NCBI GenBank assembly: GCA_042408215.1
Contig: JAYFMW010000008.1
Span: forward strand, 32,001-96,000
DNA length: 64,000 bases
DNA from: Microcoleus sp.
GTDB taxonomy: Bacteria > Cyanobacteriota > Cyanobacteriia > Cyanobacteriales > Microcoleaceae
Direction of reading: 5' to 3'
The notes below the pieces were generated by a model. It saw only the letters and a list, made by a program, of their open reading frames with translations, was not told where the DNA came from and did not search any database. Position numbers and translations under genes: made by a program. Position 1 is the first letter of the stretch. Every line of letters begins with the position of its first letter. Shown piece by piece: positions 16,560 to 64,000 of this stretch.

Positions 16560-17366
16560 TCTATATCTATATCGAGCTAATGTCTTTGATCCCCACAGAA
16601 AGACTACAATAACAGCGGCGATCGCAATTATTGAATAGTGAACTTCAGGATAGTCAACTAGCGGATTGTAATTTTGGTCTTTTGGGAATAAAATCCTACC
16701 AATATTAGCTATGCTGTGAAATAGAATGCACACAAATACACTTTTTCCAGTGTTGTTATAAAGCCAAACAATAAGTATCCGCATACCAACAAGACCGAGA
16801 GTTGCCCATGCTATCCATATCAAATCGTGACCCTGTTGAATGATTGATGGGTAATGCAATATTGCCCACACCAAGCCCAAAATGATGGCGGTTGTTAGTG
16901 CAGACCATCGTTCTTGCAGAGCATCAACGGCATATCCCGACCAGCCGACTTCTTCACCTGTAGCAAGGAGGAAGAAGGCAACAGACATTACCGCGTTCTT
17001 TAGAAACGGAATTTCCACTCCTATAGGAAGTGGCAGTCTAAACAAGTGCATTACTCCATATATCAATAAATATATTATTGGCATCAAGAAAATAAGAGGC
17101 AAATACCAGATTTTTTGCCTGATTCTTGAAAAATCGAAAACTCTTTTTAACAGATACTTTATACCAATAGTCCCCTCTTCTTTATAAACAAGGATGCAGG
17201 CAGCTATTAACGGTGTAAAGGCGGCTATAAAGTCAGTAACAGGAACATCCAGAGGAAGTCCTTTAACTTTGACCATTGTTCCAATTACCCATAATGGAAT
17301 AGTAAGAGCAAAAACCAGTAGAAAGAACTTTAGCGGTGATTTATTTGATGATGTGCTGGTATCCAT
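16527..17366 (-). CDS. CPBP (CAAX/Abi) family intramembrane metalloprotease
   Basis: EEVGWSGY, LHYP and HSIAN motifs. Confidence 0.88.
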   Translation of the reverse strand: MDTSTSSNKSPLKFFLLVFALTIPLWVIGTMVKVKGLPLDVPVTDFIAAFTPLIAACILVYKEEGTIGIKYLLKRVFDFSRIRQKIWYLPLIFLMPIIYLLIYGVMHLFRLPLPIGVEIPFLKNAVMSVAFFLLATGEEVGWSGYAVDALQERWSALTTAIILGLVWAILHYPSIIQQGHDLIWIAWATLGLVGMRILIVWLYNNTGKSVFVCILFHSIANIGRILFPKDQNYNPLVDYPEVHYSIIAIAAVIVVFLWGSKTLARYRYRYSISRCNEVH

Positions 17367-17534
17367 GATTGTGATTGATTAAATGTCGTTTTAGATTGAT
17401 TAGTCAGAAAGTAATTTTAGATGTAAGTATTTCATCGCTCTCAAGGTTTGTTAAAATTATAATTCAACTAACTGCAACCCGTATTCCTTGACGACTAAAA
17501 CTTTACACGGCTGTAAAACACTCGTTTCACATTC

Positions 17535-17756
17535 TCAGCAGCAGTAACATAAAACATCACAATCGCCCCTAACACCAGCACAAAATTCAACGGCAACGAT
17601 TGAAATCCAAACAGTTTTCCTAAAGGTGTCCAGGGGCATGATGATTGTTACTCCTACGGTAGCCAGCGTTGCCGTCCCATAACCACATACCGCGATCGTG
17701 ATTGTGGTCATCACCATTGCCGTCCACCACAGCGCAGTGCTATAGTTAGTAGACAA
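17535..17756 (-). pseudogene. Gene debris including an ion-channel pore-helix fragment
   Basis: YSTALWWTAMVMTT resembles a K+-channel pore helix; no full ORF. Confidence 0.35.
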
Positions 17757-17875
17757 CCAGGGGAATAGTTTTGCTTAGCAAGCGTGTTTGAGCGATCGCT
17801 TCCGTCAAATCACGATCGCCATGAACGAACCTATAATAATTCGTCAATTGCCACCATAATTCATTGTATAAGTAT

Positions 17876-20800: not shown

Positions 20801-21151
20801 TTTGAAACACTGGAATATGAGTTAGTTCAGGCGCAAACAGACCCCGAAGCATTAGGCGGTGTGGCGCAAAATGCAAAAAAATTCCTTTCCACAATTATTA
20901 ACCATCCCAAAGTAACTGAGAAACAAAGGGACAACATTAAGAAAATTATCAACCTGATTGATATAGGGAAATATACTAATTTGCCTTCGGAGGTTGACAA
21001 GCTGCAAAAGAAAAGAGTAAACTTAGATACGGCGATTTTAGAGATCGATCAAATTGCTGAACGATATAGTGTTGATTTCTCGGATGTCCAAAAAGGACAA
21101 AAGAGAAAAGTTGAGAAACCAGTTTTAATCATTTCAGAATCTTTTGCATAA
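17876..21151 (+). CDS. PLD nuclease-SNF2/SF2 helicase fusion (restriction-like subunit)
   Basis: HAKVY...TGSSNLT...NYEFN (PLD HKD), ADVVGLGKT, DEAH, SATP, EGVNL and QRIGRVNR. Confidence 0.88.
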   Translation: MSTKFFTNSEENTLIKKFEGVFTYNPNIQYFDALVGYFRASGYFRIRPFLDQVPNIRILVGINIDKMLADAQKSGLDFFSNYERTREDFIREIQKDIAQANYDKDTENGILQFIDDIIQNKIQVKAHPEKKIHAKVYILRPEPFNEHTPATAITGSSNLTDAGLGGGNFYNYEFNVQLTEYPDVQFATAEFEKLWAESVDILPVDIQGIKKETYLNEETSPFELYIKLLSEYFGKNIDYDPDSIGDLPQNFKKLSYQVDAVNEGFNMLLKHNGFILADVVGLGKTVIAAMVAKKFLIQNGRENTKILVVYPPAVEKNWKDTFKDFNLDKYTKFITNGSLEKILTEHQDYWKKEEYDLVIADEAHKFRNHKTGAFQNLQLICKSPRANNKGLIKGSQKKVILVSATPLNNRPDDIFYQIQMFQDARQSTLPITNLTAFFSPLMEQYKSLKRFEELDINKLRDIYGKIRKNVIEPITIRRTRTDLENIAEYKLDLIAQEINFPKVEPPKKVEYLMDEKLNELFHKTVFYLIDESRIKYSRYQAIAGLNPEIQSKYYENAETVSKSLAFIMKTQLIKRLESSFYAFKKSLSNFQQATDRMIEMFANDKIFIAPDTNVNKLLDKGWSDEEIEEEIERLSADNPKNKTFKNADFKPDFIESLENDSRLLKELVKGWDAVENDPKLDVFIAQLNKLFLNKKTNLEGKLVIFSESKDTVDYLAEALQKRGRKDVLVVSSKNRNQLYDTIVTNFDANCTQEKQANDYSIIITTEVLAEGVNLHRSNVIIHYDTPWNSTKLMQRIGRVNRIGTQANAIYNYVFYPSAQGDSQIRLNKTAFMKIQAFHTAFGEDNQVFSTDEILDAVKLFSGTYKEEQDERLKFLYFLRNFRKNNKTWFDKIKKMPLKSRAGRSSTKIKKPDLQNGTAAFLKTDKKFEFYWVDSNNQPREITPIEAFKIFEADQNEKNAELIASHHDHVNNAIKHFETLEYELVQAQTDPEALGGVAQNAKKFLSTIINHPKVTEKQRDNIKKIINLIDIGKYTNLPSEVDKLQKKRVNLDTAILEIDQIAERYSVDFSDVQKGQKRKVEKPVLIISESFA

Positions 21152-21153
21152 TT

Positions 21154-24100
21154 ATGACACAACCACAAATTAAAGATATATTCAAGCAACGTTACAATCA
21201 AGCCAAATGGAAACAATTTCTAGGCGAAACTTTTGCTAATGCTCAATTATTATCAACTCCCGAAACTCTAACTGGTATTGATGTTAACGTGGCTTCCCAG
21301 GCGCAAAAGTTAGGCTATATTCTGTTAGATGAAAATGGCATTGAACGACAAATTGCGGTGTATGAAGTAACGCTGGCACCCGGTATTATCTTAGAACGTA
21401 ATCGGGTAGGATTAAGAAATTTATTGCGTAAATATTGGAAAAATATTGATGCTGCTTTTATTGTTTATCATCGTCCAGAAAGTGCAAATTGGCGTTTTAC
21501 TTATGTTTCGGAATTAACGGGCTATGATGCAGAAGGCGAATTTATAAAAATCAAAACTGAACCTAAACGCTACACATATTTATTAGGTGAAGGTGAAAGC
21601 ATAAGAACGGCTGTTGAACGGTTTGAGCGCATTGTTAAAAAAGGGAGTAAAGCCACTTTAGATGATGTCAAAGAAGCTTTCTCAGTAGAGAAACTTTCTA
21701 AGACGTTTTTTGATGAATATAAAAAGCATTATGATATTTTTTGTAAATATATGGTTTCACAACCAGGAATTAGCCAAACGATTTTTAATGGTGACGAAAA
21801 AGCTATCCGTGATTTTAATAAGAAATTATTGGGGCGGATTGTGTTTTTATATTTCATCCAGAAAAAAGGCTGGTTGGGTGTGCCCAAAAATGAAAGTTGG
21901 GGAAAAGGTGATCGTAACTTCTTAACTAATCACTTTCAAAGTTTTCAACATCCAGAACTTTTTTATCAGGATTTTTTATCGGTTTTATTTTTTGATACCC
22001 TCAACACCAAACGCCCGGATGATTTAATTAAATTGGGAGCAGGTGAACCTTGCAGAATCCCTTTTTTGAATGGTGGTTTGTTTGAAGAAGAAAATAAGCA
22101 TCATCGCCACTTGATTTTTACTGCAAAGTTATTTGAAAATCTTTTTAACTTTTTCGATCAATACAATTTCACCATTTATGAAGATGATCCTAACGATCAT
22201 ACTGTCGCGGTTGATCCTGAAATGTTGGGGCATATTTTTGAGAATTTACTGGAAGATAATAAAGACAAAGGCGCGTATTACACACCGAAAGAGATTGTCC
22301 ATTATATGTGTCAGGAAAGTTTGATTGAATACTTAACTACTTGGTTTGAAAATCAGGGTTATGATATTATTGGTTATGCCAGTATTGGGAATCCTGAACA
22401 ACCGGAATTATTTCCGATAAACGAGTTCAGACAAGGACAATTAGAACTAGAAATTGTAGTCACATCCCCATCAAAAAAAATAGACCGGATATTAATTGAG
22501 AAGTTGCTTAAAAAGACTTTAGATGATCGGGATCAGAAATTAATAAAACAGTATTCTGCCGAATTTAATAAGGCATTAGATAGGGTAAAAATTTGCGATC
22601 CGGCGATTGGTTCGGGGGCTTTTCCGATGGGTTTGTTGCACGAAATATTTACGGCGAAACAAACGCTGCATACTTTTGAATTTGGCAACACAACTAACTT
22701 TGATGCTTCGGGTGTGAAGCTAAATATTATCCAAAATAGTATTTATGGTGTAGATATTGAACGCGGTGCTGTGGATATTGCTAGACTACGTTTCTGGCTG
22801 AGTTTAATTGTAGATGAACCTGAACCGAAAGCTTTACCTAATCTTGATTATAAGATTGTGGTGGGTAATAGTTTGGTGAGTAAGTTGGGGGATGATATTA
22901 TTGATATTGATTGGAATATAGATCAAACTGCTCACGGACTTTTTGGACACGATTTAGCAAAACAACAGCGCGTATTGCTAAAGAAAATCAGCCAAGAACA
23001 AAAGGAGTTTTTTAGCCCAGATAGTGATAAGAAAAAACTATCTGCTGACATCCGCAATCTAAAAATTGATTTGCTTATCAATCAATTGGAGTTAATGGTT
23101 AAAACCCAAGGACAAGAAACTGAACCCAAGGCTTTAAACTTTAAGGATAAAAAGAAATTTGTCAAAGCGACTGAACAGTATTATGAAAGTCTTGGTTGGA
23201 AAAACACTATTGCTCAATTAAAGAAACTGAAAACCAAACCAGAATTATCGCTTAATTTCTTTGATTGGAAATTAGATTTTCCAGAGGTAATGAATGAGCA
23301 AGTTGTGGAAAATGTGGGTTTTGATATTGTGATTGGAAATCCGCCTTATGTATTCGCTAGAGATAGCAAAAGTAAAGGGATAACTCAAGCTGATAAAGAA
23401 TATTATCCAAAGCACTATCAAGTCACAGAATATCAACTTAATTTATATCCTTTGTTTATTGAGAAAGGGTACAATCTTTTAAAAAACAAAGGTTTACTTG
23501 ATTATATAACACCTAATAACTGGTTAACTATTAGTAGCAATAAAAACTTAAGAAAATTTATTTTAGATAATTCTAATATAAAAATAGTTAACTTTTATGC
23601 CAAGGTTTTTGAAAGTGCTGATGTAGATAGTTCAATTATACTGTTTGAAAAATCTCAACAGAATAAATCTATTGAATTATTTGAATATACAGATAATTTT
23701 TATTCTATTTTTGAAACAAAAACTAATTATTTTTTACAGCAAAAAGATTATATTATTAATATTGAAGCTTTTAAGAATACTGAATCACTTAGTTTATTAG
23801 AAAAAATTGAATTACAATCAATTCAACTAAAAACAATTGCTGATGTTAAAGCAGGTTTACAAGCTTATGAAAGAGGAAAAGGGAATCCTCCACAAACAGA
23901 AGAAATCAAAGAAAATAGAGTTTATCATAGTACCACTAAAATCAATGATGATTATATTAAATATTTAGATGGTAAAGATGTTTGTCGTTATTATTTAGGC
24001 TGGAGTGGCGAATATTTAAAATATGGTGATAACTTAGCTTCTCCAAGAAAAGATTTTTCTTTATTTTCGACTCCTCGAATTTTAGTCAGACAAATACCTT

Positions 24101-24537
24101 CCCCTTTACCCTATTCTATCAATGCTTGTTTTACTCAAGAAATTATTTTAAATGATAGAAACTCAATGAATATTATTAATCTTCAAGAAAATCCGATGTT
24201 AATTTTAGGAATTTTCAACAGTAAATTAATATCTTATTGGTTTGCTCATAAATTTGGTAAACTACAAAGAGGGATATTTCCTCAATTTAAAGTTAATGAA
24301 TTAGCTACTTTTCCTATTCCAAACAATTTTGGTAATTATAAACAACCAGTCATAAAATTAATAGATGAGATATTAGAAAAAAAGGAAAAAGATGTTAAGG
24401 CAGACGTATCAGAAATAGATCAACAAATAGACAATTTAGTTTACAAACTTTACGAACTAACATATCAAGAAGTAAAAGTAATAGATCCTGAATTTGCATT
24501 AACTGAACAAGAATATGATGCCATCAAAGTAGAATAA
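21154..24537 (+). CDS. Large Eco57I/TaqI-like N6-adenine DNA methyltransferase with C-terminal specificity domain (type IIG-like)
   Basis: FLNGGLF, GAYYTP, DPAIGSGAF (motif I), YGVDI and GNPPY (motif IV); starts 2 bp after the helicase stop. Confidence 0.9.
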   Translation: MTQPQIKDIFKQRYNQAKWKQFLGETFANAQLLSTPETLTGIDVNVASQAQKLGYILLDENGIERQIAVYEVTLAPGIILERNRVGLRNLLRKYWKNIDAAFIVYHRPESANWRFTYVSELTGYDAEGEFIKIKTEPKRYTYLLGEGESIRTAVERFERIVKKGSKATLDDVKEAFSVEKLSKTFFDEYKKHYDIFCKYMVSQPGISQTIFNGDEKAIRDFNKKLLGRIVFLYFIQKKGWLGVPKNESWGKGDRNFLTNHFQSFQHPELFYQDFLSVLFFDTLNTKRPDDLIKLGAGEPCRIPFLNGGLFEEENKHHRHLIFTAKLFENLFNFFDQYNFTIYEDDPNDHTVAVDPEMLGHIFENLLEDNKDKGAYYTPKEIVHYMCQESLIEYLTTWFENQGYDIIGYASIGNPEQPELFPINEFRQGQLELEIVVTSPSKKIDRILIEKLLKKTLDDRDQKLIKQYSAEFNKALDRVKICDPAIGSGAFPMGLLHEIFTAKQTLHTFEFGNTTNFDASGVKLNIIQNSIYGVDIERGAVDIARLRFWLSLIVDEPEPKALPNLDYKIVVGNSLVSKLGDDIIDIDWNIDQTAHGLFGHDLAKQQRVLLKKISQEQKEFFSPDSDKKKLSADIRNLKIDLLINQLELMVKTQGQETEPKALNFKDKKKFVKATEQYYESLGWKNTIAQLKKLKTKPELSLNFFDWKLDFPEVMNEQVVENVGFDIVIGNPPYVFARDSKSKGITQADKEYYPKHYQVTEYQLNLYPLFIEKGYNLLKNKGLLDYITPNNWLTISSNKNLRKFILDNSNIKIVNFYAKVFESADVDSSIILFEKSQQNKSIELFEYTDNFYSIFETKTNYFLQQKDYIINIEAFKNTESLSLLEKIELQSIQLKTIADVKAGLQAYERGKGNPPQTEEIKENRVYHSTTKINDDYIKYLDGKDVCRYYLGWSGEYLKYGDNLASPRKDFSLFSTPRILVRQIPSPLPYSINACFTQEIILNDRNSMNIINLQENPMLILGIFNSKLISYWFAHKFGKLQRGIFPQFKVNELATFPIPNNFGNYKQPVIKLIDEILEKKEKDVKADVSEIDQQIDNLVYKLYELTYQEVKVIDPEFALTEQEYDAIKVE

Positions 24538-24660
24538 AATAGCCCCCGTATTTTGCCAGCGCCTTTAAAAACTGCACAAACAATTCCCTGTCCCTGAACC
24601 AGCAACGGGCTAGAAAACAGAAACAGGAAAAGTCAATTAATTATGGCGTTGAATATATCG

Positions 24661-27294
24661 CTAATTAGGTTTTCCTGATTTAGCTTTAATAACTCCTTGG
24701 GGTCGATCGAGTAACTTTAACAGTTCAAACCAGACTAAGCTAATCGCTCCACCTCCCAAACAAATTGCCAAGTCGATCGGATGCAGCAAAGAGAAGCTAA
24801 ACAATTGACGCAAGAAGGGGACATACAGCACCAATACAAGGAAGAGCAAGCCACCACCAATCACCCACCACAGGGCAGCATTGGGGGATTGCAGTATTTT
24901 TAAGCTGAGGCGCGAGGTCGAACTTTCGCTCAAAATCAGTCCTAAATTTGCCAAAATCAACGTCGTAAATGTTAACGCACGAGCATCAAGTTCGCCTTGT
25001 CTGCGATATAGCGAGATCATAAATATCGCGAGAACGATCGCTAAAATCACCACACCTTGTAGCACCGCCAATCCCACAGTTTTCCTGCCAAATAAGGGTT
25101 CTTTGGAGTTGCGGGGAGGACGCTGCATCACCGTTGCTTCTGCGGGTTCGGCTTCTAACACAATCGAGCAAGCTGGATCGATAATCAAATGTAGAAATGC
25201 AACGTGAACGGGAAGTAATACTAACGGCAACTTAAACAACACTGGAATTAAAGACATCCCTGCGATCGGAATATGAATCGCTAGAAGATATGCCATTGCT
25301 TTACGGAGATTATCAAAAATTCGCCGTCCAAGTTTGACCGCTTGCACGATGGATGAAAAATCATCATCTAATAACACTAACGCCGCCGATTCACGGGCAA
25401 CATCCGTGCCTCGCTGACCCATTGCAATCCCAATTTGGGCAGATTTTAAGGCAGGGGCATCATTCACGCCATCCCCCGTCATTGCAACGATTTCACCCTT
25501 GGATTTCAAAGCATTAACTATCCGCAATTTTTGTTCGGGAACGGCTCTTGCAAAGATATTTGTACTTTGAATACGCTGCTGAAGTTCATCGTCACTCATG
25601 CGATCTAATTCTGCTCCAGTTACGATCGCTCCCATTTGCATCAATCCAACTTGACGAGCAATGGTTTGAGCAGTTTCTGGATAATCACCCGTAATCATCA
25701 CTACTCGAATCCCAGCGGTATAACATTCTTTAATCGCCGCCGCAACGGTTGGACGCACTGGATCGGACAGTCCAACTAATCCTAGAAATTGAAAAGGAAA
25801 ATCATGTTGTTTATCTGGTAAACTATCAAGATTGAGAGACGGATGAGGTGGTAAAAATGGGGGTGGTGCACCAATAAGAGGCGCTTTAGCAACACCTAAT
25901 ACCCGCAATCCTTGCTCTGCCATTTTACTGATTTGCGCGGCTAGAATTTGCTGCTGTTCGGGCGTGAAATGACAGAGATCCGCGATCGCTTCTGGTGCTC
26001 CTTTCGCAGCAATTTCATACTGCTTGCTATCGGCTGACTGCCAAACGTGAGACATTGCTAATAGCTCCGGTGAGAGCGGATATTCTCGTAACAGTTTCCA
26101 ATCGTTGTGCAGATGTTCGGTATCCGCGAGATAGCGATCGCCCAATTGCTTAAACGCTTTCTCCATCGGATCAAACGGATCTCTTTGGCTTGCTAGAATA
26201 CAGAACTCGACTAATTCATGCACCGATTCGGGAAGCGGTTCTTTTGAATGTAATTCTAAATTATATGGCTGAGGATTTTCTGACTGGTTATATGCAAATA
26301 GTTGTTGCACAGCCATAATATTCTGAGTCAAAGTCCCGGTTTTATCCACACACAAAACCGTTGCAGAACCCAAAGTTTCAACCGCAGAAGTGCGACGAGC
26401 TAAGACATGATTTTGAGAAATGCGCCAAGCTCCTAATGCTAAGAAGATTGTCACAACAACCGGAAATTCGTTCGGCAAAATTGCCATCGCCAATGTAATG
26501 CCCGCGAGAATTCCTTTGAGCCAATCTCCTCGCATGAGTCCATAAATCACCACAATCACTACACACAGCAATAAAGCGATGCCAAACAAACGACTCACTA
26601 ACCGATTCATTTCCTGTTGCAAAGGTGTCGGTTCTGGCTGCACTTTTTGTAATGCTTTGCCAATCTTGCCCATCTCTGTTTGAGCGCCGATCGCTTGGAC
26701 TTTAGCTATTCCCTGTCCCTGCACAACTAAGGTGCCAGAAAACACAAATGGTAACTCATCTCCCCCCGGACGGGCCATCTCTACGCTACCCACAGCGGCA
26801 ACTTTACGAACTGGTAAAGATTCCCCGGTTAATAATGATTCATCGGTGGAGAGATTGGAGCAAGAAAGCACGATTGCATCCGCAGGAATGCGATCGCCTT
26901 CTGCTAGCACTAAAATATCTTCCCGGACGACTTCTCGCCCTGCAATCCGTTTTCGCTCCCCATCCCGAATCACTAAGGCGCGAGGACTGGAAAGATCGCG
27001 CAAGGCTTCTAGGGCGTGTTCGGTTTTGCCTTCCTGGTAGAGGCTAATTCCGGCGATCAAAAAGACGAATCCTAACAAAATCAGGGCTTCTTGTAGGTCG
27101 CCTAAAATCCAATAAATGACACCACCACCGACTAGCAAGAGAAAGATTGGATCTTGAACGATCTCCCAGGCGATCGAGAACAGATTGCGCGATTGTGCTG
27201 AGGGAAGTTCATTGTAGCCTTCGTCTTTGAGCCGGGCGATCGCGTCTTGTTCAGATAAGCCAGTTACGGTATTGATATCGACTGGTGAAACCAT
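24661..27294 (-). CDS. Cation-translocating P-type ATPase (type II-like)
   Basis: TGES, PNEFP, DKTGT, KGAPE, MITGD and GDGVNDAP motifs. Confidence 0.93.
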   Translation of the reverse strand: MVSPVDINTVTGLSEQDAIARLKDEGYNELPSAQSRNLFSIAWEIVQDPIFLLLVGGGVIYWILGDLQEALILLGFVFLIAGISLYQEGKTEHALEALRDLSSPRALVIRDGERKRIAGREVVREDILVLAEGDRIPADAIVLSCSNLSTDESLLTGESLPVRKVAAVGSVEMARPGGDELPFVFSGTLVVQGQGIAKVQAIGAQTEMGKIGKALQKVQPEPTPLQQEMNRLVSRLFGIALLLCVVIVVIYGLMRGDWLKGILAGITLAMAILPNEFPVVVTIFLALGAWRISQNHVLARRTSAVETLGSATVLCVDKTGTLTQNIMAVQQLFAYNQSENPQPYNLELHSKEPLPESVHELVEFCILASQRDPFDPMEKAFKQLGDRYLADTEHLHNDWKLLREYPLSPELLAMSHVWQSADSKQYEIAAKGAPEAIADLCHFTPEQQQILAAQISKMAEQGLRVLGVAKAPLIGAPPPFLPPHPSLNLDSLPDKQHDFPFQFLGLVGLSDPVRPTVAAAIKECYTAGIRVVMITGDYPETAQTIARQVGLMQMGAIVTGAELDRMSDDELQQRIQSTNIFARAVPEQKLRIVNALKSKGEIVAMTGDGVNDAPALKSAQIGIAMGQRGTDVARESAALVLLDDDFSSIVQAVKLGRRIFDNLRKAMAYLLAIHIPIAGMSLIPVLFKLPLVLLPVHVAFLHLIIDPACSIVLEAEPAEATVMQRPPRNSKEPLFGRKTVGLAVLQGVVILAIVLAIFMISLYRRQGELDARALTFTTLILANLGLILSESSTSRLSLKILQSPNAALWWVIGGGLLFLVLVLYVPFLRQLFSFSLLHPIDLAICLGGGAISLVWFELLKLLDRPQGVIKAKSGKPN

Positions 27295-54539: not shown

Positions 54540-54630
54540 GGTATCATGTTTGACCGATTAGTGAATTAAATATCTATACAACAGCCCACCAAAGCTAGTA
54601 TCCTCAAACTACCATTCAATTTTGCCGCCG

Positions 54631-54705
54631 TTGTATTTTGTCTCGTCGTATTTTGTCTGGTTGTATTTTGTCTGGTTGTATTTTGTCTCGTTGTATTTTG
54701 CCCAT
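54631..54705. repeat. 15-bp tandem repeat TTGTATTTTGTCT(C/G)G, ~5 copies
   Basis: Direct reading of the sequence. Confidence 0.9.
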
Positions 54706-55066: not shown

Positions 55067-55510
55067 TTGCCGATGCTAAAAAAAGCGGATCTTCAAGTCA
55101 ATACAGGTCTGAGTGGATTAGGCTGGGTTTTGTCGTGGTTTTCACAATTGTACGACTCGCGAATTCCCACAAGTGTGTGGATACGGTGTCAGTTGGTTTT
55201 GGCTGAGGGCTTTACGAATGCGGTGCGTCACGCCCACAAGGGCAAACCAGCGGATTTGGCTGTTGACATTCAGGTGGCGGTGTTCGCTGAATTTGTAGAG
55301 ATTAAAATTTGGGATTGGGGCGATCCGTTTGATTTAGAGCAAAAAATCAAAGATATTTCGGAAAAAGTCGATTTTGACTCTCCGGGCGGGCGGGGTCTAA
55401 AATTGATCAAAGATATCGCAGATAGTATTAGTTATGTGAGAACGGCTGATGGACGGAACTGTTTGTCGATCGTCAAAAATTATTCGCCCTGTCTCAACGA
55501 TCGAAAATAA
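55067..55510 (+). CDS. Anti-sigma factor Ser kinase (RsbW/HATPase_c_2)
   Basis: EGFTNAVRHA, IWDWG.PFD and GGRGL. Confidence 0.9.
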   Translation: MPMLKKADLQVNTGLSGLGWVLSWFSQLYDSRIPTSVWIRCQLVLAEGFTNAVRHAHKGKPADLAVDIQVAVFAEFVEIKIWDWGDPFDLEQKIKDISEKVDFDSPGGRGLKLIKDIADSISYVRTADGRNCLSIVKNYSPCLNDRK

Positions 55511-55581
55511 CACGAATATTTTTAGCGGGTAAGGGTTGACGGTAGCCGTTCTTCCCACCCCTAAGAACCGTGCGCGAATGT

Positions 55582-55690
55582 TACAGCAATTCCCGCTGTT
55601 ATGAAACACGGTAGGGACACGGCTCTTGGAGTGTCCCTAGGAGGATTGAACGATAAGTGAGTGTACCTCATAACAGCGGTTTCCGCTGTA
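55582..55690. mobile_element. MITE-like element (TACAGC...GCTGTA family)
   Basis: Terminal inverted repeats and internal TAGGGACAC/GTGTCCCTA hairpin. Confidence 0.7.
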
Positions 55691-55733
55691 AGCTGCGTAG
55701 CAGTTTATTATATTTTGATATGACTGCACTGCC

Positions 55734-57491
55734 CTAGATACTGGGAATTCCCATAGCATCGGTATTTCCCCCATTAACTTGTTGCCAAAGGGTGCCATAG
55801 ACTCCTCCTTGTTCCAGCAAATCTGTATGGCTACCAGATGCCACAATACTGCCATTTTCTAGGACAAAAATTTTATCCGCACGCAAGGCATGAGCAATGC
55901 GGTGGGTAATCATAATTACTGTGCGTTGTTTAGAAATGCGATCGATTGTAGCGAGAATACCCGCTTCCGTTACCAGGTCAAGGGCGGATGTCGCTTCGTC
56001 TAAAATCAAAATAGCCGGATTTCTGACTAATGCTCTAGCGAGGGCGATTCTTTGGCGTTGTCCGCCCGATAACTGTCCGCCTCTGTCACCGACGGGGGTA
56101 TCATAACCTTGGGGTAAGGTGAGGATAAATTCGTGAATTTCTGCATCTTTGGCGGCGATTTCGACTTCCTCATCGGTGGCTTCTAAATATCCCATTCTGA
56201 TATTTTCACGGATGGAAGTGTTAAATAAAATTACCTCTTGAGAAACCAGCCCAATTTGCTCGCGCAGGGATTTTTGAGTGCAGGAACGCAAATCAATGCC
56301 ATCAAAAAGAATGCTACCTTTATCTGGGTCATAAAGTCGGGTTAATAGGTTAACGATGGTACTTTTACCCGCACCGGAATGTCCAACAAAGACAACAAAA
56401 TCGCCTTGGTGGATGGTTAGGGATAGGTTATTAACTCCTTTTCGCTCTGAAGAATAGTTAAAGGTAACGTTATCAAAGCGAATTTCACGGGAAAAATGGG
56501 GTAATTCAATGGCATCCGGTGCGTCTTGGACTTGTGGAACTTCAGCCAACAGAACGGAGATGCGCTGCATCGCGGCTATTCCTTCTATTAGGTAAGGCAA
56601 GGAAAACGTAAAGCTGAGGATGTTTAGATTTAACCCGACTAATAAAACCTGAAAAGAGACGAGTGTACCTACTGTAATTATGTTTTTGTAGGTCATTACT
56701 GCGCCGATACTGATGATGGCAAGCTGGACAAATACAAAGACTAGAGTGGGAATCCTTTGGACTAAATAAGAGGAAAACTTGGCTTTAACATAAACTTTTT
56801 TTAGAGCCTGCAAATCCTTGGAAAAATTGTTAATGGTTCGGGGTTGTAAGCCAAATAATTTAACAACGGATTGAGATAGGATATTTTCTTGAATGACATT
56901 AGCAATTTCTCCTTGCTGGTTTCTCAATTGATAGTTTTGCACTGTAGCTTTTTGACCAATTTTTGCGGGTGCAATGACACAGAAGGTTAAACCAATACAA
57001 CTAATCAGCCCTAACTGCCAGTTGAGGGAAAACATAAAAATAGCAGAAAATAGAATGCTACCTAATTCTAAAATTATTATTAATCCGTAAGCCAAGCTAT
57101 TTTCTATTTTTTCGATATCGCCTGAAAAACAGTTGACAATATCTCCGGCTGAACGTCGCCCAAAAAACTCCATAGATAGGTTTTGCAGGCGAACGAACAT
57201 AGAATGGCGGATATTGTTGATGACTGAAATGTTAAACCGCGTCGCCCAATAATCTCCTAATAAACCGACGAAGACAAATAAAACTGCTGCTCCACCCAGC
57301 AATAGGATAATTAAAACCAGAAGACGGTAATTTTGGGGAATAATGGCTGCGTCGATAATAAATTTTAAGCTGATTCTAATTGAGGATTCAAAGACTGCCT
57401 CAAAAAGTCCACGAGCGATGAGAATAATTGCTAACCATCTGTAGGGAGCGATGTATTTATTCAGTTCTTTGAGAAACCAATTTAGATTCAT
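55734..57491 (-). CDS. ABC exporter half-transporter (TMD+NBD)
   Basis: Six TM helices, GHSGAGKST, LSGGQRQR and LDEATSALD; overlaps the upstream gene by 35 bp. Confidence 0.93.
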   Translation of the reverse strand: MNLNWFLKELNKYIAPYRWLAIILIARGLFEAVFESSIRISLKFIIDAAIIPQNYRLLVLIILLLGGAAVLFVFVGLLGDYWATRFNISVINNIRHSMFVRLQNLSMEFFGRRSAGDIVNCFSGDIEKIENSLAYGLIIILELGSILFSAIFMFSLNWQLGLISCIGLTFCVIAPAKIGQKATVQNYQLRNQQGEIANVIQENILSQSVVKLFGLQPRTINNFSKDLQALKKVYVKAKFSSYLVQRIPTLVFVFVQLAIISIGAVMTYKNIITVGTLVSFQVLLVGLNLNILSFTFSLPYLIEGIAAMQRISVLLAEVPQVQDAPDAIELPHFSREIRFDNVTFNYSSERKGVNNLSLTIHQGDFVVFVGHSGAGKSTIVNLLTRLYDPDKGSILFDGIDLRSCTQKSLREQIGLVSQEVILFNTSIRENIRMGYLEATDEEVEIAAKDAEIHEFILTLPQGYDTPVGDRGGQLSGGQRQRIALARALVRNPAILILDEATSALDLVTEAGILATIDRISKQRTVIMITHRIAHALRADKIFVLENGSIVASGSHTDLLEQGGVYGTLWQQVNGGNTDAMGIPSI

Positions 57492-58638
57492 TTTTATTCA
57501 AGGGGGAAGACTTTATATAACATCTAGCAAAAGCCTCAGTAATAATTTCTGACATCAATTGTGCAAAGGGAACGCCAGCTAGGTGTAATATAGTACCAAC
57601 TGGTGTTTCTAATGGGTCGGAGAACGTCGAGAAAGGTTTGGAAGAAATGGCACAGTTTGCATTTACTTCTAGGACAAATAGTTCTTTAGATAGTTTATCC
57701 ATTCGTATATCTACCCGTCCATAACCATTCCCACTTACTGCACAGTAAGCACCTTTAGCTAAATCGCAAAGTCTTTCACGCAACTCAGGATTAACGATTT
57801 TGTGGCGAATAAATGGTTTCTCTCTTTTCCAAGAGGTTTTTCCTTCATCTTTTCCCCAGTAGCGATCGTGTGATAAAAACTGTTCGGTTTCAGGTAAATC
57901 AGTGTTAAATATAATTTCTAGAGGTGGGTAGATTTTAATCTTCTCTGGTTGCTGATAAGAACCGATTACAAAGACTGTAAACTCAGAACCATTAATAAAA
58001 CTTTCTACAAAGATACTGTCGGACGATAATAGCATCCCCCCATGATTTTTTTCTATTAAACATTTAACCTGTGCGCCGATCTGTTCATCGCTGTACACAA
58101 CCGAGTTTAAAGAAAGCCCATAGCTACCGCCAGACAGCACTGCTGGTTTTACAATTAGGGGTGTACCGAGGCGATCACACACTCCTTCAACATTATTAAA
58201 ATCGTATATTACTTCATAGGGAGCAGTAGCTATTCTTGCTTCTGATAAAGCGTGTTTTAGGGAAATTTTATTGGTATTGAAACTGTCAAAAATTGAATCT
58301 GCACCGACAAAAATGATGCCTTTGGCTTCTAATAGCTTGATGAGAGAAACACCGGGACACTCATCAATTTCATCCAAACCATCACAATAATTCAGCACCA
58401 CAGGAATAAGCTCAGGGGTAGAAACTGCGATTTTTTCTACAACATCGTGCATATTTTCTAAGCTAACTGACTGACGTTTCCAGGGCACACCAAGCTCGGA
58501 AAAGACATCAATCATTTCCTGTTCAAAAGACTGTGTATGAAAGGCTTCCATCCATTCTTGTTTGATTTTGGAGGATGGGGTTAATACCCAAACAAAGAGC
58601 CTGCTACTGGGTACAGGGAATTTGTGAAAAATTGTCAT
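57457..58638 (-). CDS. D-Ala-D-Ala-ligase-like ATP-grasp protein
   Basis: IVKP, VESFINGSEFTV, GYGRVDIRMD and LEVNANC. Confidence 0.85.
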   Translation of the reverse strand: MTIFHKFPVPSSRLFVWVLTPSSKIKQEWMEAFHTQSFEQEMIDVFSELGVPWKRQSVSLENMHDVVEKIAVSTPELIPVVLNYCDGLDEIDECPGVSLIKLLEAKGIIFVGADSIFDSFNTNKISLKHALSEARIATAPYEVIYDFNNVEGVCDRLGTPLIVKPAVLSGGSYGLSLNSVVYSDEQIGAQVKCLIEKNHGGMLLSSDSIFVESFINGSEFTVFVIGSYQQPEKIKIYPPLEIIFNTDLPETEQFLSHDRYWGKDEGKTSWKREKPFIRHKIVNPELRERLCDLAKGAYCAVSGNGYGRVDIRMDKLSKELFVLEVNANCAISSKPFSTFSDPLETPVGTILHLAGVPFAQLMSEIITEAFARCYIKSSPLNKNESKLVSQRTE

Positions 58639-58681
58639 TGATTTTATTTTTTATAGACTAAAAGTAAATAGCGATATACTT

Positions 58682-59845
58682 TCATACTGATTGGTAAACC
58701 AATCCTGATTTAGAATAATACCTACTCAAAGCCTCAGCAATTATTTCTGACATCAGTTGTGCAAAAGGAATCTGACCGAGGTGTAAAATAGTACCAACTC
58801 TGGACGTATTTGGCTCTTCCACACCCATTGTAAGAGACCTAGAAGTGACAGCGGGACAGGGATTTACCTCTAAAACAAACATCTCTTGAGTTATATTGTC
58901 CATGCGGATGTCTACTCGTCCATATCCAGTACCACCCACTGCACAGTAAGCACGTTTAGCTAAATCACCGAGCCGCTTATGCAATTCAATTGGTGCTAAT
59001 TGATAACCAAATAATGGTTCCTGATTGGGCGGGAGAGTTCGCTCTTCTACTTCTGTTATCCGTAATTCACGGGTATAAAATTGCTCGGTTTCAGGTACAC
59101 CAGAGTGAAAAACGGTTTCTACAGGTGGATAAACTTCAATTCGCTCTGACTGTTGAGCATTTCCTACGAGTAAAACCGTAAATTCTCGACCTTTAATAAA
59201 TCCTTCGACAAAGATACTGTCTGCCGGAATCTGCATCCCATGTTGTCCTTGCTGTAGCTCCTCAAATCGATTGATCGCATCTTCATCACTGTGAACAACA
59301 GATTTCAAACAAATGCCTCTAGTGCCAAACGAAGCTGAAGGTTTGACAATCAGTGGAGGTACAAGGCGATCGCACAATCCCCGAATACTAATGACATCCT
59401 TAATCACCTCATAAGGTGCAGTTGAAACTCCCGACTCAACAAAAGCCTCTTTCATCAATATCTTGGAGTCCCCCATTTTAAAAAATTGAGAATCTGCCCC
59501 CGCAAAAGGAATACCCTTAGCTTCCAATAATTTGACAACGGAAGCGCCCGGATATCCATCAACTTCATCTAGTCCCGCACAGTAGTTCAGTACAAGTGAG
59601 AAATATTGGGCTTGGGAAGCAGCAACTTCTTCGATCGCTGCCTTCATATTCTCTAAGGTGATTAGCTTAAACTTCCATGCCACCTCCAGTTCCGCAAAAA
59701 CATCGGCTAGTTCTTGCTGAAAATATAAAGGATTAAATTCTTCGTTAGAAAAATCTTGCTCTACGGATAGACAGGGAATGAATGCCCAGACAAGTATCTC
59801 TTTATCGGAAAGCGGGGGATTTTGGATTTGTTGAATTGATTTCAT
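58682..59845 (-). CDS. D-Ala-D-Ala-ligase-like ATP-grasp protein (paralog)
   Basis: IVKPS, VEGFIKGREFTV, GYGRVDIRMD and LEVNPCP. Confidence 0.85.
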   Translation of the reverse strand: MKSIQQIQNPPLSDKEILVWAFIPCLSVEQDFSNEEFNPLYFQQELADVFAELEVAWKFKLITLENMKAAIEEVAASQAQYFSLVLNYCAGLDEVDGYPGASVVKLLEAKGIPFAGADSQFFKMGDSKILMKEAFVESGVSTAPYEVIKDVISIRGLCDRLVPPLIVKPSASFGTRGICLKSVVHSDEDAINRFEELQQGQHGMQIPADSIFVEGFIKGREFTVLLVGNAQQSERIEVYPPVETVFHSGVPETEQFYTRELRITEVEERTLPPNQEPLFGYQLAPIELHKRLGDLAKRAYCAVGGTGYGRVDIRMDNITQEMFVLEVNPCPAVTSRSLTMGVEEPNTSRVGTILHLGQIPFAQLMSEIIAEALSRYYSKSGLVYQSV

Positions 59846-59921
59846 TTTTTAGATAGGGTTAACAGGATTGCTGAGGTGGACAAAAACAATACCTTAGTGT
59901 TAGGTAAAGCCTATTGGCAAT

Positions 59922-60530
59922 TTATGAAAAACTATACTGGCACTCTTTGGATTCCAAAAAGTTTCTATATAGGCGTTGAAAAGGTGATTTAACTCGCTGT
60001 AAATGTTCAAAATTAAATACATCTAGCATCAGAGCAAGACCACTGCCATATTCGGGGTGATTTATCATATCAATCGTTTGATAGCCTATTTTTTGAAAGA
60101 AAGGAATCATGTGGGGTTCGCAGTCTATAAAATCAAACTTTATTCCATCTAGCAGTAATTGATGGTAATTTGCTTGCACTATTCTCAAAGCCATTGTACT
60201 TCCTCTAAAATGTGGTTCGATCATAAGTTTTGTGCTGATTGATGTACTCAATGGATGTGCATCTCCGGCAATATCACTGATTTGATAAAGCTCTGCATAG
60301 TACCCTAAATCTGAATTTATAGCATAGTTGCTTCTAACCGTACCCACCAAATTACCATTTTGAAAAGCCACAAATATGTTGCCGAATTTATCTAGCGGTT
60401 CTTCTATTTTGTAGTGTTGTTTCTCTGCATAGTGTTGGCTATATCCCAGTTCTTCTACATAGATTTGATAGCGCAATTTGAAAACCTGTTCTTTTTCTTC
60501 GGGGGTTTTAGCTAATCTTATTTCCAGCAT
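59922..60530 (-). CDS. GNAT-fold N-acyltransferase of FeeM/LuxI-like type
   Basis: A.T.EE.E.VF.LRY.IYVEE, LVGTVR, KLMIEPHFRG and FFQKIGY. Confidence 0.75.
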   Translation of the reverse strand: MLEIRLAKTPEEKEQVFKLRYQIYVEELGYSQHYAEKQHYKIEEPLDKFGNIFVAFQNGNLVGTVRSNYAINSDLGYYAELYQISDIAGDAHPLSTSISTKLMIEPHFRGSTMALRIVQANYHQLLLDGIKFDFIDCEPHMIPFFQKIGYQTIDMINHPEYGSGLALMLDVFNFEHLQRVKSPFQRLYRNFLESKECQYSFS

Positions 60531-60571
60531 GGTATTTCTATATCCGTAAATTCAGAGTTTGTTTTTAGTTA

Positions 60572-60831
60572 GGGCGATCGCCCTTCGGATGTGGAAATTT
60601 AATCGGGGGGCGATCGCCTTTCAGGTGGCGGGACTGCTAGAAAATAGTGCAGTCCTACCTGTTGCGGCAATGCGAGTCTGTGGAAGTTGGTTAGAGGGGC
60701 GATCGCCCTTCGGATGTGGAAATTTAATCGGGGGGCGATCGCCTTTCAGGTGGCGGGACTGCTAGAAAATAGTGCAGTCCCTACCTGTTGCGGCAACGCG
60801 AGTCTGTGGAAGTTGGTTAGAGGGGCGATCG
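60572..60831. repeat. Tandem 125-bp duplication bounded by HIP1-like sites
   Basis: Units start at 60572, 60697 and 60823 (partial), each beginning GGGCGATCG. Confidence 0.9.
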
Positions 60832-60944
60832 TGCTTAATGAATGATGGCAAGAGTAAAGTCAAGATTGATTTAAGAGCGCTCTGTTGAAAGCCGTTAATT
60901 TTGAGCTTGCTGTCAAAAAAAAAATGCTCTTAATTCCGGCAAAC

Positions 60945-61322
60945 TTATTGTATTGATTGCTTGATTATGAAACGTATTGAAAAATATGGTGGTAGACTTT
61001 CCGTTTCCTTGGTTTTGCCGTTGTAATTTACTTTTACTGGCGCATTTGTATCGATCACAGGCCAATCGTTTCCACCAGCTTTTCGTGTCTGATAAGACAC
61101 TGTTGCATTCACCTCGAAATCATGTGTATGGGTCTTGTTACCTCCAACTTTACCAACTGGGTTGTTATCGTCCACACCTCGTGGGAATAATCCAGATAAG
61201 TTCGGCGTGCCATTTTTCCCATCGCATATTTCCCAACCGGCCGGTACATTCTTATCACTTCCAGACCACATAATTATTGCTCCCACTGGGAAATCAAGGT
61301 TTGAGATTTGTGTGATTGTCAT
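60945..61322 (-). CDS. Stand-alone phage tail-collar-like domain protein
   Basis: PVGAIIMW, PAGW.ICDG, TPNL.G.F.RG, HTH and PPY..I.FIIK. Confidence 0.75.
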   Translation of the reverse strand: MTITQISNLDFPVGAIIMWSGSDKNVPAGWEICDGKNGTPNLSGLFPRGVDDNNPVGKVGGNKTHTHDFEVNATVSYQTRKAGGNDWPVIDTNAPVKVNYNGKTKETESLPPYFSIRFIIKQSIQ

Positions 61323-61579
61323 ATTTTTGTGTGTCTCCTCATTAAAGAGTTTCGATACTGTCTAGCTAATAATAAGACGATTCCCGAAGCCAAATTGTGA
61401 ACTCTTCAACTGCATAACTTTCCGAAACTCGTCGCACCCGATAAAACCAACCCAAAAATGCGCCCCTCTTCCTCTTCAGGGCAAGCAGAAACGAGTCAAT
61501 ATCACACCAGTCTTCTCTTGTCAAGGAAATCACGATATAATTTTCACTACTATTCCGGCTAGGTGTAAAGTTACAAGTC

Positions 61580-62027
61580 CCTTGACATTAAACCTAGAAC
61601 CGTTCACCTGACAGACAAACAGTTCTATCAGTTATGTCAAAATAACCGCGAGTTACAGTTTGAACGAACTGCCAAAAGAGAATTAATTATTATGTCACCC
61701 GTTGGCGCGAAACCGAATTAATTGCCGCTTGGATTCAGCGCGAACGCTGGGAAGCACTCACGCCCGAACAACGCCATAAAATTTCCCCCCATTGCACCCG
61801 ATTTTGCGATCGAATTAAGGTCAGCAACAGATGATTTGGAAATGTTGCGTTCCCAAATGCAGGAATATATGGGCGCAGGAGTGCAATTGGGATGGTTAAT
61901 TAACCCCCAACAGCAACAAGTAGAAATTTATCGCGCACGACAAGACGTGGAAGTGCGAAATCTCCCCACAGAATTATCAGGTGAAAATATATTGTCTGGA
62001 TTTAGCTTGAGTCTATCCCCCGCATAA
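61580..62027 (+). pseudogene. Uma2/DUF820 endonuclease pseudogene
   Basis: QFYQLCQNNRELQFERTA, PDFAIELRS and LGWLINP in shifting frames, with an internal deletion. Confidence 0.8.
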
Positions 62028-63102
62028 ACCGGGTTTCTTTCGGGGTAAAGGCTAAGATTTTATCGATCAAAACTAGAGAAACCCGGTTTCTCATTTCCCC
62101 AGAAACCGACTTCCTTTCAGCATTAAAACTAACATTTATTCGCTTAAAGCTAAAGAAACCCGGTTTCTCGCCCTTCATCCTTTCCTCTAGTTCCAGCTTT
62201 TCTCTATGCGCTACAGACAGCGCCGCCGACTGGGGTTCCCCATCAGCAACAATCTCTATTTCCTCTAACTTCTCATCAGGTTGAGCCTCCACCAAAACAG
62301 GCTCAATCTGCGTAACAGACAGCGCCACCTCTGGTAATTCTATAGCAGCAACAATTTGTACTTCTTCTAACTCCCCAGATAAGATTATCTCGCCCGCAAC
62401 GGGTTCTTTTTGAGCAGTCTTCTTCGACTTCCTTGGTTTTGCAGACTGAGGAGAAACCCTCGACTTAGGATTAGACAAATCAGAGTCAGTCCCATCTTCA
62501 GAGAAATTTTCATTGAACCGCTGACGCAAAATTGCCCGCGCCTGGGAAATCCGCTTGCGGACGTTATCGTAGGAAATATTAAGCTGTTCGGCAATATCTG
62601 GATAAGATAGCCCTGACTCAAAATGGAGAATAAAAGTCTCGCGTAATCTATCTGGCAACTCATCTATTGTGCCACGAAAAAATAATTCGAGTTCGCGCTG
62701 CATAGCAGCGCGAACTGGTGTTTCTTCTTGGCTAATTAATTCGGTTTCGTTTCCTATAGCAATGGTGTCTAAACTGTCAACTCCTAGTGCACCCCTGTTG
62801 CGCTCTCGATGGATATCGGCGCACAGGTTATAAGTCAGTTTGGTTAACCAAGCCTTAAAGTTTTTGATCTCATCGGTACAATCTCTTGCTTTCTCCCAAG
62901 CTTTGAGCATCGCCCGACTGAGGGCATCTTCAGCATCGGTTGGATTGCTCATCCACTTGCGACAGCAACGGTAAAGATAATCTTGATTATCCTGCCATAA
63001 TTTCCAAAAAGCTGAATCTATATCTTGAGTGCCTGAGCAAGGGATTGATGCAGAACTACAACTTAACATCTCTGGAGCCTGAAACTCTAGGTGGACAAAC
63101 AA
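62002..63102 (-). CDS. ECF-type sigma-70 factor with long acidic C-terminal extension
   Basis: Region 2 DAEDALS...FKAWL..L.YN; region 4 LP.RLRETF.L...LSY..IA..L.IS...VRKRISQAR. The start may be the ATG at 63069. Confidence 0.85.
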   Translation of the reverse strand: MFVHLEFQAPEMLSCSSASIPCSGTQDIDSAFWKLWQDNQDYLYRCCRKWMSNPTDAEDALSRAMLKAWEKARDCTDEIKNFKAWLTKLTYNLCADIHRERNRGALGVDSLDTIAIGNETELISQEETPVRAAMQRELELFFRGTIDELPDRLRETFILHFESGLSYPDIAEQLNISYDNVRKRISQARAILRQRFNENFSEDGTDSDLSNPKSRVSPQSAKPRKSKKTAQKEPVAGEIILSGELEEVQIVAAIELPEVALSVTQIEPVLVEAQPDEKLEEIEIVADGEPQSAALSVAHREKLELEERMKGEKPGFFSFKRINVSFNAERKSVSGEMRNRVSLVLIDKILAFTPKETRFMRGIDSS

Positions 63103-63180
63103 CTTGCGATTAATTGAGGCGGTAATTTACCTAGCCTCGGATGCACCTATCGCCATGTTGACTCACTACTCAGGCTAAAG

Positions 63181-63230
63181 TAAAGTCGGAAAAGTCGGAT
63201 CTTTAAAGTCGGAAAAGTCGGAAAAGTAGG
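63181..63230. repeat. 9-bp direct repeats AAAGTCGGA, ~5 copies
   Basis: Upstream of the sigma factor gene. Confidence 0.75.
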
Positions 63231-63397
63231 ATCATCGCCGCTAGGAGTGCATAGCTTAGACATCCCTTTGGCAGTTTTAGGACTTACGCCAACGGCTTTT
63301 AAACACTATTGGTAGCGTAAGGTGCACAGTGTGCACCCTACAGATAGAGTTTATGCGTAATTTCTCAATTTAATGTCACCAAGCTAAAATCTGAACT

Positions 63398-64000
63398 TTA
63401 AGATTTAAAATCCTTTGACAGAGGATTTAGCCACAGCAAAATTGTCTGTTTTAATTGATTTAATTCCCGATACACTTCTTGTTTTACCCACTGCCCGATC
63501 GCATCGAAGGGCGTAAAAATTTGACCGACTGGCCAGCCAAAATCTTGACCCAAGGGCGTTTGATGGTTTCCTACCAATGTCTGAACTGTAATCATGTCAG
63601 GAAATTGTGCTTTTAGCAGTTTGGTCAACAGCAGGGTTTGGTCGATGTTGTCGTCCTTAAATTTAATTAAAAGATTGCGCCGAATTGCATAGCTATCTTG
63701 TATGAGGCGATTGGTGTCTTGGGGGGAAGGCGTAAACTCGACGTTAAAGACGGGGGAAATTTGCTCGACGATCGGGATTGCCTCGGATGCCGCATAATTG
63801 TTGAAAGAGATCAGAATATTGCCGGCTCGTTCTACGTCAAATACAGAACCGATCAGGAGGTGCAGTTTACATCCCATGCTATGCCCGATGCCGTAGATGG
63901 GGAGATAGCGATTTCGCAGCACTTTGTTAGCCTGCAAGCGGGAGAGGGCATTTTCAAATTTGTTGAGGACATCGCGGGCGATCGCAATATGATCCAAAGT
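63398..64000 (-). CDS. DUF1350-family alpha/beta hydrolase (runs off window end)
   Basis: YGIGHSMGCKLHLL, EFTPSP, D..IDQ and GNH.TP. Confidence 0.8.
   Translation of the reverse strand, partial: TLDHIAIARDVLNKFENALSRLQANKVLRNRYLPIYGIGHSMGCKLHLLIGSVFDVERAGNILISFNNYAASEAIPIVEQISPVFNVEFTPSPQDTNRLIQDSYAIRRNLLIKFKDDNIDQTLLLTKLLKAQFPDMITVQTLVGNHQTPLGQDFGWPVGQIFTPFDAIGQWVKQEVYRELNQLKQTILLWLNPLSKDFKS

Follow-up and report, generated by a model that had tools for sequence, protein, structure and literature searches.

A mobile Microcoleus cassette joins an N-acyltransferase to two Ddl-fold ATP-grasp ligases and an exporter: a candidate route to a capped amide without a nonribosomal peptide synthetase

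A 64,000-nucleotide stretch of Microcoleus sp. (contig JAYFMW010000008.1, positions 32,001 to 96,000; hereafter the window) carries four genes for an N-acyltransferase of the GNAT family, two ATP-grasp ligases (LigA and LigB) and an ATP-binding cassette (ABC) exporter, and this four-gene unit is a real, undescribed and mobile biosynthetic cassette (Table 1). As a reading made from the sequence alone had proposed, the minus-strand open reading frames (ORFs) confirm four co-oriented genes, with spacings of 76 bp and 43 bp and a 35-bp overlap. The names of the closest proteins and the kin groups of the genome mark the host as a Microcoleus-like cyanobacterium. The unit is not an assembly artefact, because all four genes lie together on an independent 8.7-kb contig of run X2, which shows 14 differences from the window over 5,015 bases. 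The ORFs are intact and, in nine pairwise comparisons with orthologs, dN/dS ranged from 0.16 to 0.36 for all four genes. The earlier view that the pathway is not a described one agrees with the literature accessible to search, which gave no description of the cassette, an earlier in-silico mention being possible. We give about an even chance to the whole explanation, namely that the four island genes form a pathway free of nonribosomal peptide synthetases (NRPS) to a capped, exported product. That an exported small amide of some kind is made is probable.

The two ligases are paralogs (48% identity over 372 aa) with the common motifs first quoted for them, and their loops differ as described (SFGTRG and EVNPCP in one, LSGGSYG and EVNANC in the other). 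Both exceed the cut-off of Pfam Dala_Dala_lig_C (48.5 and 51.5 bits; cut-off 24) and possess the ATP-grasp fold, the Ddl C-terminal domain and the catalytic Lys, Glu, Arg and Asn. Both miss the cut-offs of the Ddl equivalogs TIGR01205 (61.1 and 60.4 vs 245.65) and NF002378 (70.5 and 60.1 vs 243). The substrate motifs GGxSxEH and HGxxGEDG, which are kept in the genome's own housekeeping Ddl (GGRSGEH; C6:531951-533024), are replaced in LigA and LigB, and no Ddl N-terminal Pfam model matched either, in keeping with the claim that the housekeeping signature is missing. Ddl and VanA are the closest solved folds. The window ligases are about 20% identical to them and differ by their replaced N-terminal amine-binding motifs, an invariant Cys89, their location on an accessory island and the presence of paralogs with divergent loops. 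Publicly, these ligases are labelled D-alanine-D-alanine ligase or hypothetical protein, and the cassette family is therefore readily overlooked. An alternative cell-wall function, Van-like or in wall-peptide remodelling, would suit such folds and labels, as well as a D-2-hydroxyacid dehydrogenase found at one locus. This role is nevertheless very improbable, given scores of about a quarter of the Ddl cut-offs, the replaced motifs beside a true Ddl in the same genome, the rapid divergence of loops between paralogs, and the fact that no mur, van or racemase genes were seen beside the 25 cyanobacterial loci introduced below. In the fold comparison Ddl ranked above RimK/LysX by 6 Z and above graspetide ligases by 12-14; thus RimK-like graspetide ligases are not the closest relatives of LigA and LigB. 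The profile and fold assignments suggested at the outset have held in this respect. The likeness to microviridin and other graspetide clusters is likewise restricted, as had been noted, to the parts list (two ATP-grasp enzymes, GNAT, ABC): among 30 ORFs of at least 20 aa in the region covered, 60500-62100, none looks precursor-like by eye, and with ligases nearer Ddl than RimK we rejected identity with a microviridin cluster. A second divergent Ddl-like protein (394 aa; G000:C10:85600-86784), outside the ligase family in the tree, is encoded elsewhere in the same genome, where its gene overlaps that of a membrane protein judged EamA-like by eye.

The GNAT scores 28.9 bits on Pfam FeeM (cut-off 27) and has a FeeM-like fold, FeeM and LuxI-type synthases being its top fold matches at 11-17% identity; it differs from both in being coupled to ligases. 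LasI, TofI and RpaI rank level with FeeM or almost so, and BjaI and RpaI appear weakly in the profile search (E 0.017 and 0.69). Together with an aromatic ammonia-lyase and acyl-coenzyme A (CoA) ligase found before the GNAT at one locus (L124), a combination that recalls p-coumaroyl-homoserine lactone systems, this could make the GNAT a LuxI-like synthase producing an acyl- or aryl-homoserine lactone from S-adenosylmethionine, with the ligases making a separate product. We consider this improbable, since the GNAT has no Autoind_synth match at E 0.01, no LuxR-type gene was seen in the loci and the GNAT is tightly paired with one ligase clade. Among sequences, the GNAT profile matches a polyamine acetyltransferase best, though weakly (E 0.0016).

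The cyanobacterial branch is rare: ligase matches were obtained in 8 of 143 genomes of the family, 8 of 400 of the order and 1 of 400 of the phylum. Cassette counts refer to 25 distinct cyanobacterial loci, with neighbour genes counted within 9 kb, and the ligases of these loci split into many clades with differing loops. A GNAT lies directly upstream of the ligase in eight of the nine LigA-type loci (the remaining one is on a contig of 2.2 kb) and in none of the 16 other cyanobacterial loci. Homologs of the ABC exporter (61-93% identical) and of an extracytoplasmic function (ECF) sigma factor gene occur at 14 and 16 of the 25 loci, respectively. In Planktothricoides sp. SR001, adjacent locus tags carry LigA and LigB types (79% and 68% identical), and genome G024 has the four-gene order with the ligases fused and the second one of a different clade. 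In no other genome was precisely this four-gene order seen. The pocket of the LigA clade is also distinctive. Counting duplicates and kin, position 90 is Ala or Gly in 26/26 LigA-clade rows, and Arg259 is present in 26/26 of these rows vs 3/118 other cyanobacterial rows. Outside the clade, position 90 is Asp or Glu in 92/118 cyanobacterial and 18/18 non-cyanobacterial rows. Judged from the alignment, these changes may fit an amine-blocked donor, which is suggestive only.

An ATP-grasp ligase turns a carboxylate into an activated acyl-phosphate, which it then couples to an amine. In the pathway that we propose, the GNAT would first move an acyl group from acyl-CoA or a housekeeping acyl-acyl carrier protein (ACP) onto an amino acid. 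LigA, whose clade appears to have lost the acid at the position of the amine-binding His of Ddl and to have acquired the Arg, would then activate this amine-blocked donor, and LigB would extend the LigA product, which sister cassettes may prenylate, methylate or oxidise instead. Each ligase would add one amine-bearing unit, and these are predicted to include arginine or agmatine. Finally, the ABC protein would export the product under the control of the ECF sigma factor. We regard this order of steps, GNAT, LigA, LigB and export, as having roughly equal odds of being right or wrong. The product is likely to be a protease inhibitor or a deterrent of grazers or competitors, comparable to a minimal aeruginosin or E-64.

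Several observations weigh against this pathway. The GNAT lacks an acidic residue on the strand at 96-104, the putative site of the counterpart of FeeM Glu95, and 24 aligned homologs have no Asp or Glu at 97-104; the FeeM-type assignment made earlier is upheld by profile and fold. Glu95 has a catalytic role in FeeM (PMC4897644). The CoA loop of the GNAT is non-canonical (RGSTMA), with a canonical RxxGIG in 3/9 aligned orthologs by the criterion of PMC11685415, and the cassette contains no ACP gene. Ala at position 90 occurs also in 15/118 GNAT-less rows. The LigA clade is one lineage, and therefore its 8/9 pairing with a GNAT is one historical pairing. More distant GNATs (50-58%) are found in 10/143 family genomes without a ligase match. 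At 11/25 loci the ABC threshold was missed (in two of them with a split or cut copy), and cassettes with an ECF gene, cargo, ABC and methyltransferase and without ligase were found at 4/4 loci checked (L255-L258). Since ligase-free cassettes carry it, an ABC protein of this type need not serve a ligase product. Overall, the NRPS-free N-acyl peptide assembly and export suggested by the sequence-only reading is partly supported. No expression evidence was found, an RNA-labelled run giving one 273-base contig identical to LigB by which transcription is not established. Lastly, no guanidine enzyme is encoded in the cassette of the window itself, a point taken up below. Of the distant GNATs, those at 6/8 loci viewed adjoin a solo SET gene and many contain internal stops, suggesting that a solo SET + GNAT unit decayed after ligase loss. 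Such two-gene units, often with internal stops, are seen in other genera of the family (L128-L135).

Comparison of the same site across strains showed that the island is a frame with exchangeable slots. The empty site, in which the anti-sigma gene abuts the gene at 63398-63997, is present in 7/10 congeners, and the ECF gene is absent from the relatives with an empty site. The joint of 55483 to 63417 is present in runs X2 and X5, the latter containing both forms (empty site at depth 166 and island at about 5; contig depths, a rough guide). Island GC is 41.7% vs 45.1% in the genome. In run X2, 618 other bases stand in place of the slot at 60703-61366 and its 125-aa gene, on an otherwise near-identical contig. 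At the same site, genome G490 keeps ECF, GNAT, LigA and ABC genes (DNA 87% alike to the window over 58728-60728 and 89% over 55685-57501), carries a different, 309-aa gene in the cargo slot and has LigB replaced by a 290-aa gene plus IDI-2; its 125-bp unit is single-copy and 96% alike. L125 and L137 are a second same-site pair, with the same downstream genes and with both GNAT type and slot gene differing. In G025 unrelated cargo is flanked by the ECF gene and an 80-base remnant of the end of the ABC gene, and in G478 the two island flanks are unlinked. The cargo at the island's site in G025 (L254:1749-6670) comprises secreted-looking genes, whose products include a 901-aa protein, one with an RTX-like repeat and two of 190 and 140 aa. 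Elsewhere in the window's genome (G000:C30:539239-539586) lies a gene related to the 125-aa cargo gene at 31% identity.

Table 1. Coordinates of the island and its genes in the window
Feature	Position	Strand	Remarks
Whole island	55500..63417	.	between anti-sigma-type kinase gene 55067-55510 and conserved hypothetical gene 63398-63997
ABC exporter	55734..57491	-	585 aa; ABC_membrane + ABC_tran, without C39 peptidase domain
LigB, Ddl-fold ligase paralogous to LigA, swappable slot	57457..58638	-	393 aa
LigA, Ddl-fold ATP-grasp ligase, GNAT-linked clade	58682..59845	-	387 aa
GNAT N-acyltransferase, FeeM/LuxI-like fold, predicted N-capping	59922..60530	-	202 aa
Tandem duplication, 125-bp unit, upstream of GNAT	60572..60836	.	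sole two copies in genome
125-aa gene, variable cargo slot between ECF gene and GNAT	60945..61322	-	weak Collar match below cut-off
3' part of Uma2-family gene	61722..62027	+	101-aa ORF; 206 aa intact in G490
ECF-type sigma factor, head of island, likely regulator (inferred)	62002..63102	-	Sigma70_r2 + r4_2

The slot behind LigA varies most. It holds LigB in the window and Planktothricoides sp. SR001, the fused second ligase in G024, a 290-aa protein with or without IDI-2 in G490, L124 and L138, a heme-oxygenase-like protein in L013 and L125, and a methyltransferase in L137. The GNAT of L124 is 50% and its LigA 85% identical to the window's, which fits a swap of the acyl donor. By type, 8 loci have a GNAT, 4 a SET and 7 an amidinotransferase, with a single overlap. 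These swaps invite a wider view, that mat-forming cyanobacteria own a plug-and-play NRPS-free peptide factory in which ligase clades play the part of adenylation domains, each with specificity loops of its own, and are reshuffled with capping and guanidine-tailoring enzymes (acyl, amidino, methyl, prenyl and enduracididine) in ECF-headed islands at fixed sites, giving an aeruginosin-like inhibitor per strain; we put it forward tentatively, as possible and on balance doubtful. At L017 (4062-11155, Calothrix) a one-module NRPS (A-MT-T-TE) precedes a ligase-SET and a ligase.

The variable cargo genes raise the question of whether the enzymes act on proteins. They would then modify co-encoded proteins or peptides by acylation, amino-acid tagging, methylation or prenylation before ABC secretion. 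Besides the 125-aa protein here, MACPF, patatin, crystallin-like and PI-PLC-like genes are found elsewhere, L021 contains C39 peptidase ABC transporters, the ligase-free cassettes exist, and SET, GNAT and RimK-type enzymes are established protein modifiers. On the other hand, cargo proteins are unrelated between loci and exchanged independently of the enzymes, no conserved precursor ORF of at least 20 aa lies upstream, and the ligases have a Ddl fold by the margins given above. Moreover, PanD, IDI-2, the ammonia-lyase and GntB/C supply small molecules, and partners of this small-molecule kind favour a metabolite rather than a modified protein. We hold protein modification to be quite unlikely. 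L255-L258, from four genomes of the genus Microcoleus, encode an ECF sigma factor, a TPR protein, variable secreted-looking proteins, an ABC exporter and a methyltransferase, in the same frame with other cargo.

Guanidine chemistry recurs in the sister cassettes. A guanidine-handling gene is present in 12/25 loci, which are kin and not independent, and in none of the other 13. The contributors are putative amidinotransferase genes in 7 loci (weak ADI matches), an Aer3-like gene in 5/25 and, at L245, GntC and GntB homologs directly after the ligase and above cut-off (421 vs 415; 432 vs 380). GntB and GntC are named for arginine hydroxylation and cyclisation. IDI-2 occurs in 3/25 loci; PanD in 2, EctC-like genes in 3 and, at L243, a flavin oxidase with a 2-hydroxyacid dehydrogenase are further neighbours that would supply substrates. 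Relatives of the 290-aa protein of G490 were found in 11/301 order genomes. In 5/7 fetched loci they are flanked by an NRPS on one side and a large oxygenase on the other (of the Rieske type in 3/3 scanned), with short-chain dehydrogenase/reductase and cupin genes, and homologs in this aeruginosin-type order score 273-309 bits. The DxxxE motif is present in 5/5 aligned homologs, and likeness to Aer3 was judged by this motif and the homologs' gene order. Aer3 is described as an agmatine N-prenyltransferase with a DXXXE motif and the same gene layout, and AgdS/T prenylate arginine (PMC12371840). Because the window's own cassette has none of these enzymes, a guanidine in its product is inferred from the sister cassettes, and we rate it at somewhat under an even chance. 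The rest of the GntC/GntB pathway was not found within the 20 kb fetched at L245 (6822-10384). Four cassettes (L011:14980-17553, L016, L127 and L245) encode a protein of 857 aa that ends in an ATP-grasp_4 domain and whose N-terminal half is ATP-grasp-like; it adjoins PanD twice and an EctC-like cupin twice, an arrangement that may follow the logic of carnosine synthase.

The ligases belong to a wider family, in whose tree the cyanobacterial members group with non-cyanobacterial ones from Bacteroidota, Gemmatimonadota, Acidobacteriota and others. Window ligases are 30-45% identical to it over near full length, with N-x-C-x-G and PG motifs in common. A species-genome scan gave at least 494 related stretches, of which the best 80 were kept, and a metagenome scan 491, of which 79 loci were kept; loci with too little flank were excluded from each count. 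Outside cyanobacteria, where at least 1.6 kb lay downstream, the ligase adjoined a second ligase fused to SET in 53/58 loci (best 80 of at least 494) and 40/41 metagenome loci. A solo SET gene was near in 27/63 (best 80 of at least 494) and 20/55 loci, and an ATPase-less ABC membrane gene in 20/56 (best 80 of at least 494) and 8/29, respectively. GNAT and ECF genes of the window type occurred in 0/145 non-cyanobacterial loci among the matches listed. A representative search returned 243 clusters at E 1e-30, two-ligase and SET-ligase fusions among them. SET-fused partners stand beside the ligase in 4/25 cyanobacterial loci, and the window's genome has no SET or ligase-SET match at E 1e-5. This parent module, a ligase and a ligase-SET with no GNAT, speaks for an inverted order: the ligases would start from free amino acids or a polyamine, coupling them, before acylation by the GNAT as the last step, as tailoring, pro-drug formation or self-protection in place of SET methylation. 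The apparent interchangeability of GNAT, SET and amidinotransferase, the polyamine acetyltransferase match and the exchange of the GNAT while LigA stayed 80-85% alike point the same way. Yet the GNAT gene invariably comes first, ahead of LigA, and Ala90 and Arg259 in the LigA clade fit an amine-blocked donor; we judge acylation as the last step to be unlikely. Distant members with two ligase domains or unrelated fusions (P0169, P0239, P0252, P0267, P0226, P0257 and P0265) look eukaryotic by eye.

The logic of the proposed pathway is known from dapdiamide and E-64 types, the enzyme families are other, and the natural module swaps add interest. Stand-alone enzymes of the E-64/circinamide (Cp1B, Cp1D; Microcoleus mfa cluster) and dapdiamide pathways link an acid as cap to an amino acid and to an amine, for example agmatine (PMC12568646), the same amide-forming logic as proposed here. 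The pathways described there use a glutathione-synthetase-like ATP-grasp enzyme, an ANL amide synthetase and an Fe/alpha-ketoglutarate epoxidase, whereas the window has two Ddl-fold ligases and a GNAT; identity with the mfa cluster was rejected on its described gene content (PMC12568646). Aeruginosin/microguanidine tailoring (Aer3, AgdS/T, AerC, IDI-2; PMC12371840) is echoed by the Aer3-like gene and IDI-2 that fill the LigB slot in sister cassettes; the cassettes have no NRPS, Choi genes or Rieske oxygenase, and the window no Aer3-like gene. The 'D-Ala-D-Ala ligase 3' LAM-SET operon of a lichen Nostoc has a patchily distributed Ddl-like ligase that lacks the N-terminus of Ddl and is linked to both SET and an exporter (PMC5987646). 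A Ddl-like ligase of such build and the exporter link are shared by the cassette here, which has no aminomutase. No LAM_C match was obtained in the window's genome, and six LAM-linked cyanobacterial ligases score 48-69 bits on the window ligase family profile vs 580-670 for full-length members. Identity with the LAM-SET 'Ddl3' operon was rejected on both counts, the Nostoc N6 ligase itself being outside the comparison.

The natural same-site swaps are a ready-made comparison set for product chemistry. Each should shift the product mass by a definite amount (one more residue, +68 Da for prenyl, +14 for methyl, or an aryl cap), and the chemistry should therefore be solvable with a few 5-kb constructs. 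If the proposed pathway is right, it would provide a new metabolite class from soil-crust and mat Microcoleus cyanobacteria, supply biocatalysis with amide ligases that differ in specificity and offer a way into the unstudied but widespread ligase-SET module. Were the plug-and-play view also true, that parent module, present in at least seven bacterial phyla, would indicate that many bacterial SET domains methylate a small ligated amine.

Two further features were noticed in the window. A five-fold 15-bp tandem repeat lies at 54630-54704, between a PP2C response regulator and the anti-sigma gene, and positions 17000-25000 have a low GC content (31-36% vs about 45%), possibly marking another island.

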